Source: Escherichia coli
GTDB lineage: Bacteria; Pseudomonadota; Gammaproteobacteria; Enterobacterales; Enterobacteriaceae
Length of the DNA: 25,956 nt
Assembly: GCF_003334785.1 (NCBI RefSeq)
Contig: NZ_QOWV01000029.1
Direction: 5' to 3' (one strand)
The notes beneath the pieces were generated by a model, which saw only the letters and a list, made by a program, of their open reading frames with translations, searched no databases and was not told the origin of the DNA. The first letter of the stretch is position 1. Each line of letters starts with the position of its first letter. The position numbers were made by a program, and so were the translations under genes. Below, one piece after another: positions 8,657 to 9,120 of the stretch.

Positions 8657-9120
8657 ATTGTCTCCTCATCGTCACGACTGCCGGGTCAGCCAGGTCATTT
8701 CCCGGAGGAGCGAAGCTCCTTCTGCCGTCCGGGTCTTAGGGTATTTCCCCGCAGTGGACCTTTCCGACGGGGGACGCTCACCACGTCACGGGGCAGTTGT
8801 CCGGGGGCAGACGCAAAAGTTTTTGACGCCTGCGGCAAAAAGTTTTGTGGCTGGTACATCTCTCCCCTGGGCGGCTGAAACGGGATGTGGTCGTGTATGT
8901 CCCCCGGAAAGTCCGTCTGCGGAGAACGGGCCGCAGTGCGGCGGCAGGCAGGCAGAGACAGCTGCGCCATCAGGCGCAGTGGCCTTACACACCGTAAGGT
9001 GTGCAGGGAGCGCCGCATCCGGCGCGACCGGAGAAAACCGACGGCACAGCAATGGCATGTGGTGGTCACTGGTACACCACTCCCGCACAGGTGAAAACAG
9101 AGAAAACAGCACGACATCCA
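8657..9120. other. GC-rich, hairpin-dense non-coding block (candidate ssDNA promoter/ssi-like element or structured RNA)
   Basis: Multiple short perfect hairpins (GCGCC-ATCA-GGCGC, CACACC-GTAA-GGTGTG, GTGGT-N9-ACCAC, GCGCCG-CATC-CGGCGC) and direct repeat GCAAAAGTTTTT; ORFs here overlap on both strands and lack RBS. Confidence 0.35.

Follow-up and report, generated by a model that had tools for sequence, protein, structure and literature searches.

Single-stranded-DNA (ssDNA) promoters allow the anti-defence and establishment genes of conjugative plasmids to be expressed within minutes of entry, when the second strand has not yet been made. This is part of the explanation for how well resistance plasmids get past restriction and SOS barriers. 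Frpo (ssiD) of the F plasmid was reportedly treated by Masai & Arai 1997 and ssi1 of the IncI1 plasmid ColIb-P9 by Bates et al. 1999, and ssi3 of ColIb-P9 is said to be the subject of Nasim et al. 2004. Here we describe a stretch of 25,956 nt of Escherichia coli DNA (contig NZ_QOWV01000029.1 of assembly GCF_003334785.1; this whole stretch is called the window below). Its block at 8657-9120 very probably holds the IncI1 element ssi1, which belongs to the class 1 ssDNA promoters (Frpo/ssi/ssp1 family). This element has been described before and is ordinary, and the copy in the window is new in no respect of kind.

The homologues have been studied by experiment. F Frpo adopts a fold that displays -35 and -10 boxes, and it recruits RNA polymerase in vitro; Frpo1 and Frpo2 are both needed for early expression in vivo (Couturier et al. 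2023, PMC9849209). The RNA made from F Frpo can prime DNA synthesis in vitro. Transcripts of ssp1/Frpo contribute to complementary-strand priming in vivo (bioRxiv 10.64898/2026.01.09.698686). For the plasmid pESBL, Wen et al. 2025 (PMC12672017) describe ssi1-3 as class 1 ssDNA promoters upstream of operons that are zygotically induced in time-course RNA-seq. Their start sites were mapped by rapid amplification of cDNA 5′ ends (5′ RACE), and the induction decayed as the duplex formed.

Sequence similarity carries most of the identification. The core at 8703-9031 was 97.0% identical (320/330 aligned positions, over 329 nt) to the ColIb-P9 element 'Frpo1' (= ssi1, AJ238399.1:1459-1787). The reference coordinates were those in Supplementary Table 2 of Samuel et al. 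2024, who accepted Frpo/ssi members at a BLAST E value below 1e-6. ColIb ssi1 compared with the copy in locus L001, which is 100% identical to the window element, gave an E value of 3.7e-158. The copy in pESBL-EA11, which lies upstream of the DUF4942 gene there as well, was 97.6% identical to 8703-9031. The identity was 81.1% to ssi2, 79.3% to ssi3 and 55% overall to F ssiD. In the classical IncI1 plasmid NZ_CP016516, 8703-9031 had two matches of ~80%, one downstream of ardA and the other just upstream of ssb. These are the positions expected of ssi2 and ssi3, respectively. The copies are what has been called the 'three dispersed repeats' in the leading region of IncI1 plasmids. As defined by homology, the functional unit is 8703-9031. 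The rest of the block, 9032-9120, is kept alongside ssi1 in IncI1 plasmids, and 8657-9229 was 95.3% identical to pESBL.

The block is also strongly conserved. In PLSDB, 4726 records matched it, and 3984 of these are predicted to be conjugative. At least 80% of the element was covered in 2041 records (IncI-type). A further 2580 records fell in the 60-80% identity band (IncF-type); among the matches listed for this band, the core alone was matched. A loose pattern, TGTCCGGGGGN{45,75}CCCTGGAC, was run over 298 Gb of genome contigs, and no new homologue was among the matches listed for it. These came from unrelated GC-rich genomes (Streptomyces and various metagenome-assembled genomes) and look like chance.

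The block had been picked out in a sequence-only reading, which described GC-rich, hairpin-dense, non-coding DNA and proposed either a Frpo-type or ssi element of the leading region or a structured RNA. Folding of both strands, which that reading had named as a check, gave a stable long-range ssDNA structure. With this structure and the conservation of the block, the outcome that the reading had named as refuting it did not occur. The + strand of 8703-9031 reached -95.7 kcal/mol in the minimum-energy fold with DNA parameters (z -5.9), and 0/100 shuffles folded as well. Its complement reached only -79.0 kcal/mol (z -3.9), which is 16.7 kcal/mol weaker. An advantage of 10-17 kcal/mol for the transferred strand was found in all five reference elements, among them ColIb ssi1-3 and F ssiD. 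The dominant structure was a long imperfect hairpin at 8749-8922, which the sequence-only reading did not contain. It consists of an A/T-rich apical stem, a bulge on the 3′ arm, a 14-bp stem with G.T pairs and an aaa/ggg internal loop (8878-8880). On its 5′ side it is flanked by one small perfect hairpin, and on its 3′ side by a 5-bp hairpin followed by three perfect mini-hairpins.

The fold was further examined in an alignment of nine IncI1-type copies, taken from the window, ColIb, NZ_CP016516 and CP061266. Standard pairs filled 92.2% of the pair cells, compared with 41-51% when the partners were slid by 1-3 columns. Eleven pairs had changed on both sides, while the slid controls had at most 4. 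None of 500 shuffles matched the observed values, except for the count of further pair types, which was within the range of its shuffles. Compensatory changes were also found in the small hairpins (helices 1, 10 and 11). In the small 5′ hairpin at 8706-8720 (helix 1), 100% of the cells pair, and one A-T pair is replaced by G-C in 3/9 copies. G.T cells outnumbered A.C cells by 73 to 32, a comparison that is partly circular because the structure was derived from the window row. This excess fits selection on the + strand.

The short hairpins noticed in the sequence-only reading were real and more frequent than expected by chance. Four distinct perfect hairpins had a stem of at least 6 bp (8706-8720, 8962-8979, 8988-9003 and 9010-9025), and two others had a 5-bp stem (8930-8942) and a 6-bp stem with a 10-nt loop (9059-9080). 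The scan score for short hairpins was 5, whereas dinucleotide-preserving shuffles (n = 1000) averaged 0.48 and reached 5 in 1/1000. As a sign of a promoter, however, these hairpins are peripheral; it is the long imperfect hairpin that resembles a promoter. Short direct repeats exist, for example GCAAAAGTTTTTG / GCAAAAAGTTTTG at 8813 and 8835 and 9027-9051 / 9087-9111 (72%), but the main pair is simply the two arms of the apical stem. No tandem array was found in the block by Tandem Repeats Finder (TRF).

The location and polarity agree with those of known ssDNA promoters. A nick motif adjoins an inverted repeat of the oriT core, and we place the nick after the G of ATCCTG, on the assumption that it is analogous to MOBP/IncP oriT. 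Because the motif CATCCTG|T lies on the + strand, the + strand is the transferred strand and enters 5′ first from 7245 upward. The block is 1.4-1.9 kb into the leading region, on the side of oriT that enters first, and ssi1 starts 1.46 kb downstream of the nick motif. The genes nikA and nikB are on the other side. As its presumed target, ssi1 has the DUF4942 gene, which appears to be the first gene expressed upon entry. The ATG of this gene at 8653 corresponds to the annotated start of the orthologous gene. In NZ_CP016516, CP061266 and pESBL, the DUF4942 gene also follows ssi1, so that in the window and in three other IncI1-type plasmids the transferred strand is the template of the downstream gene. 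In the classical IncI1 plasmid, the orthologues of DUF4942, ardA, psiB and ssb all lie on the strand opposite to the transferred one. Coordinates of all these features are collected in Table 1.

Table 1. Features of the ssi1 locus and its surroundings (positions in the window)
Feature	Position	Strand	Basis or remark
ssi1 element	8703..9031	+ (transferred strand)	homology; transcription direction leftward
Small perfect hairpin AGGAGC-GAA-GCTCCT	8706..8720	+	between promoter hairpin and gene; fold and hairpin scan
Long imperfect hairpin, apical loop CCTG 8829-8832 (4 nt)	8749..8922	+	minimum-energy fold and covariation
Core common to F Frpo1/Frpo2, apical part of the hairpin	8798..8907	+	BLAST against F
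A/T tract AAAAAGTTTT, UP-element-like, then -35-like TTGTGG (8845-8850)	8837..8850	+	3′ arm, proposed non-template arm
10-nt bulge GTACATCTCT, no partner on 5′ arm	8854..8863	+	unpaired in IncI1- and F-type folds
TGGGCG, hexamer placed as a -10 box would be (other copies: TGGAC-G/T/A)	8868..8873	+	candidate -10 only
Three perfect mini-hairpins (8961-8980, 8983-9007, 9010-9025)	8961..9025	+	3′ end of element; fold and hairpin scan
Remainder of the block, outside ssi1	9032..9120		beyond homology to ssi2/ssi3; hairpin at 9059-9080
Leader and ribosome-binding site GAGGAG (8662-8667) of DUF4942 gene	8654..8702	-	sequence
DUF4942 gene, 282 aa	7805..8653	-	Pfam PF13708, E 7.6e-51; first gene templated by transferred strand
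oriT core: inverted repeat 7186-7233, then nick motif CATCCTG|T 7238-7245	7186..7245	+	adjoins nikA/nikB
Helix-turn-helix (HTH) gene, 83 aa	9230..9481	+	block lies in the intergenic region 8654-9229 between DUF4942 and HTH genes

The promoter-like parts were found on the 3′ arm of the long hairpin. The A/T tract spans 8837-8846, and the hexamer TTG(T/C)GG behind it did not vary among the copies from IncI1, F and IncC; it was base-paired in 10/12 folds. Its -35-like role is an assignment that we infer from the sequence. The bulge motif GTnCATyT occurred in 11/12 aligned copies. From TTGTGG to the next hexamer there are 17 nt on the 3′ arm and 7 nt on the template arm, as read from the sequence. 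Across the aligned copies, the hexamer at the -10 position came 15-17 nt after TTG(T/C)GG. In the window, TGGGCG forms G.T wobble pairs, and the aaa/ggg internal loop comes next. The series of TTG(T/C)GG after an A/T tract, GTnCATyT and CCCCTGGAC recurred in the IncI1, F and IncC copies, and in part in the Salmonella and Serratia copies. The conserved unpaired bulge may make the promoter strictly single-strand-specific, by setting the 17-nt spacing on one arm. We also considered two other placements of the promoter. With the -10 box in the bulge (TACATC-like), the -35 box 17-18 nt upstream would fall in or beside the apical loop, and that hexamer is unconserved in the IncI1 copies. With the 5′ arm as non-template and transcription toward the loop, no conserved boxes were found. 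Both were rejected.

By analogy with F Frpo, ColIb ssi3 and pESBL ssi1-3, the strand entering the recipient would fold, and its hairpin would mimic duplex promoter DNA. The 3′ arm would serve as non-template, with the A/T tract, TTGTGG, a 17-nt spacer containing the 10-nt bulge, the weakly paired hexamer and the internal loop. RNA polymerase with sigma-70 would then start on the 5′ arm as template, before the complementary strand is synthesized. The predicted start lies at roughly 8780-8795. From there the transcript would extend leftward across the small hairpin and the ribosome-binding site to reach the DUF4942 gene, and it may also serve as a primer for complementary-strand synthesis. Once the DNA is duplex, the hairpin would be gone. 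Because the bulge has no counterpart on the other arm, the boxes on the - strand would be ~7 bp apart instead of 17, and the promoter would be off. The outcome would be a transient zygotic pulse. That the window copy is transcribed in this orientation-specific way as ssDNA is expected from its homologues F Frpo and pESBL ssi1-3.

Several observations weigh against an active ssDNA promoter at this place. No canonical -10 box was found: TGGGCG has the right spacing, but it is non-canonical and failed the sigma-70 scan. The conserved bulge motif, which is TACATC-like, sits too near TTGTGG to be the -10 box. For these two reasons the box assignment is uncertain. The accessible text of PMC12672017 names ssi1-3 collectively and, in that part, does not name the DUF4942 gene as induced. 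Moreover, the nearest relatives of the window are typed IncFIA and 'mobilizable', insertion sequence (IS) elements occupy the place of trbABC, and a 13.5-kb segment of the leading region is gone. The element may thus act only under mobilisation by a helper IncI1 plasmid, or be a relic.

Instead of ssi1, or in addition to it, the same intergenic region could carry an ordinary duplex promoter with an operator, serving the DUF4942 gene and the divergent HTH gene. In established cells, the HTH protein would then bind two palindromes and control leftward transcription through the block. We consider this rather unlikely. The only sigma-70-like site in 8600-9260 is on the - strand at 9213-9186 (GTGAAA-16-TATCAT) and points toward the block and the DUF4942 gene. 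It overlaps the second of two 37-nt repeats just upstream of the HTH gene, an arrangement that is kept in pESBL and NZ_CP016516. However, this site is outside 8657-9120 and outside ssi1, and it matches the consensus at 9/12 positions, for which the chance expectation in the region is 0.3 matches. Within 8703-9031, a strict scan of both strands found no canonical duplex sigma-70 site. A duplex promoter would also leave the long hairpin, the strand asymmetry and the paralogues at ssb and ardA unexplained. Such a promoter and operator could coexist with ssi1, as an extra layer of control rather than an alternative. The two 37-nt direct repeats (9126-9162 and 9193-9229) were 86% identical. Each contains a perfect palindrome, AAAAAGTGAA-n5-TTCACTTTTT and AAAGTGAAA-n3-TTTCACTTT, respectively. 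The repeats are probably operators.

A different doubt concerns the host replicon. The window lacks 13.5 kb of the leading region of a classical IncI1 plasmid (23319-36801 of locus L002), with the junction at 10956-10965. The missing segment contains a pndC-like gene, ssi2, ardA, psiA/psiB, a parB-like gene, ssb, ssi3, a klcA/ardB-like gene, a DNA methylase gene (M.EcoGIX-like) and DUF1281. At the junction the two alignments share 10 bp, as might be left by a deletion mediated by microhomology. As a result, ssi1 is the sole ssDNA promoter left in the window. It might therefore be a non-functional relic, carried passively in an IS-ridden context without its own transfer apparatus, as the IncFIA typing and 'mobilizable' label of the closest records, the IS elements instead of trbABC and the loss of ssi2, ssi3, ardA, psiAB and ssb would suggest. 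We regard this as improbable. The element is intact, differing from ColIb ssi1 at 10/330 aligned positions, with a fold of -95.7 kcal/mol compared with -101.9 kcal/mol. The ORF of DUF4942 is intact too, as are nikA, nikB and the oriT core; mobilisation by a helper IncI1 plasmid would therefore still deliver ssi1 as ssDNA. In a degraded, mobilisable derivative, ssi1 thus stayed intact despite the loss of the other five leading-region ssDNA promoters and their genes.

A structured RNA had been the other proposal of the sequence-only reading, and it is now very improbable. Such an RNA could be, for example, a small RNA or a 5′ leader that regulates the DUF4942 mRNA, with hairpins acting at the RNA level and not in ssDNA. 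Sequence past the start site would be transcribed, GC-rich hairpins form in RNA too, and the - strand folds better than its shuffles (z -3.9). Nevertheless, the block had no match to Rfam 15 at the gathering thresholds. At E values up to 1 there were two chance-level matches, with 24 and 15.6 bits against gathering thresholds of 56 and 50. The transcript-sense (-) strand is the less stable one by the 16.7 kcal/mol given above, and the G.T pairs conserved on the + strand would become C.A mismatches in it. In addition, homologous elements have been shown by experiment to act as ssDNA promoters. The scan for intrinsic terminators (a GC-rich stem followed by a T run) found 0 sites on both strands of 8600-9260.

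Protein coding through the mechanical ORFs (open reading frames) of 179 aa (+, 8658-9197) or 142 aa (-, 8695-9123) can practically be dismissed, despite the length of these frames and a 65-aa 'hypothetical protein' that PGAP annotates in some relatives, toward the right of the block: an IncI1 plasmid with 98% identity has them broken into 145/109/65 aa and 54/116/77 aa, the indels between paralogous copies are 1, 2, 5 and 10 nt, no frame was conserved in close and distant homologues, and DNA of 60% GC gives long open frames by chance. Because of the broken frames and these indels the region is non-coding, as first described. The GC content also agreed with that description, being up to 0.60 in 8600-8999 and about 0.44-0.55 in the flanks.

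An ssDNA promoter thus remained the best account of the block, and we compared the window copy with each described system. ColIb-P9 ssi1 and its pESBL-EA11 orthologue occupy the same site between the DUF4942 and HTH genes, beside oriT-nikAB, in the same orientation and with the same predicted hairpin. The ten aligned positions that differ in the window include a change from TGGACG to TGGGCG in the candidate -10 hexamer, where G.T thereby replaces an A-T pair. Unlike the replicons of these two relatives, that of the window is without ssi2, ssi3 and the ardA-psiB-ssb segment. ColIb-P9 ssi2 and ssi3 are full-length paralogues, which share the hairpin, with compensatory changes, and the three terminal mini-hairpins. 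They differ in having an apical loop of 8 nt rather than 4, an interval of 16 nt rather than 17 between TTGTGG and TGGAC, and other downstream genes. Neither copy is within the window.

F Frpo (ssiD, Frpo1/ssp1a) and Frpo2 (ssp1b) are more distant and share an apical core of ~110 nt at 74-75% identity. The common core reads GTCCGGGGG...GCAAAA..TTTT / AAAAAGTTTTG(T/C)GG, the bulge GTnCATyT, then CCCCTGGAC. In BLAST, the block matched F at 74% over 117 nt (NC_002483 63755-63865, Frpo1), on the opposite strand of the record, which is the transferred strand. The E value of the core against F ssiD was about 1e-9 to 1e-10, and only the apical ~110 nt aligned. F Frpo has the same location in the leading region, the same transferred-strand polarity and the same thermodynamic strand asymmetry. 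Its lower stem and flanks are unrelated and the three mini-hairpins are missing. For F Frpo the evidence is direct and comes from work both in vitro and in vivo, whereas the window copy is known here from its sequence and predicted fold. Taken together, homology, fold, position and orientation support the Frpo-type or ssi identity that the sequence-only reading had offered as one possibility. An ssDNA promoter of this kind was recognisable from raw sequence.

Two other classes have been described in pESBL and F: class 2 promoters precede ardA and klcA, and the class 3 promoter precedes M.EcoGIX. They are leading-region stem-loops too. According to PMC12672017, they also drive zygotic induction from the transferred strand, and they are reported there to be without sequence homology to ssi1-3. 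They are missing from the window because the segment carrying them has been deleted.

The mini-hairpin trio at the 3′ end distinguishes the IncI1-type elements. In helices 10-12, which form the trio, 92-100% of the cells pair, and there are 3 compensatory pairs. The motif TGCGCCATCAGGCGCA was present a single time in the window ssi1 and in every ssi copy of both L002 and pESBL, as well as in 1/3 copies of CP061266; it was found nowhere else in the fetched loci and was absent from F ssiD. A tentative and rather doubtful idea is that the IncI1-type elements are composite, combining a promoter hairpin shared with F and a separate mini-hairpin module; the single-strand-specificity suggested above for the bulge is a separate and equally tentative idea. 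Structurally, the trio could signal where complementary-strand synthesis stops or enters, comparable to the ssp2 roadblock of F. Alternatively, it could keep SSB away so that the long hairpin can nucleate, or it could end read-through that arrives from the upstream operon. Trios were located at 8961-9025 in the window, at 21266, 24169 and 31210 in L002, and at 8877, 15221 and 18621 in L127. Tails related to the trio were seen in the insect-metagenome Frpo' sequences of Samuel et al.

In CP061266, copies of the element were located at 8623-8910, 12001-12324 and 18303-18588. The copy at the ssi2 position was nearer to the window ssi1 (84.5%) than the copy at the ssi1 position (80.8%). Mosaic segments were seen in the alignment of this plasmid, a sign that the three paralogous promoters may have undergone gene conversion or recombined with one another.

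The first gene under such a promoter in IncI1-type backbones is that of the uncharacterised DUF4942 protein. This protein had no match in NCBIfam and no sequence match in the PDB. Apart from Pfam DUF4942, it matched only PHROG families: some without an assigned function, and phrog_6263, whose N-terminal half it resembles and which is annotated as DNA methyltransferase (E 3e-17).

The gene order in the window is that of an IncI1-type backbone. It runs hok/sok, nikB (4110-6809, -), nikA (6820-7152, -), the oriT core, an ORF annotated 'MobC', the DUF4942 gene and the block, followed by the HTH gene, an Rpn-family gene, impC/umuD/umuC and parM. An ORF for an IS1203-type transposase (402 aa) and a 233-aa ORF lie at 2025-3233 and 3512-4213, where trbC/trbB/trbA normally follow nikB. 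The counterpart of the 233-aa ORF in L001 is annotated as a hypothetical protein. Since IS elements are at the place of trb and the relatives are IncFIA and 'mobilizable', the oriT-nikAB-ssi1 module of IncI1 lies within a degraded, mosaic plasmid.

The nick-region motif YATCCTGY occurred 9 times in the window, compared with about 3 expected, and 0/100 shuffles reached 9. The sites were at 20, 7238, 9868, 10675, 10855, 11372 and 21554 on the + strand and at 18061 and 20438 on the - strand, so that 7/9 were on +. Only the site at 7238-7245 adjoins the oriT inverted repeat, and the other eight may be chance or compositional.

Rfam matched an AgrB-type antisense RNA at 603-690 (+, 57 bits) and the sok antitoxin RNA at 1316-1473 (-, 134 bits). 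The end of the transfer region that IS elements have disrupted is therefore flanked by a pair of type I toxin-antitoxin loci. At the matching places, pESBL is annotated with the DinQ-like toxin DqlB and with Hok.

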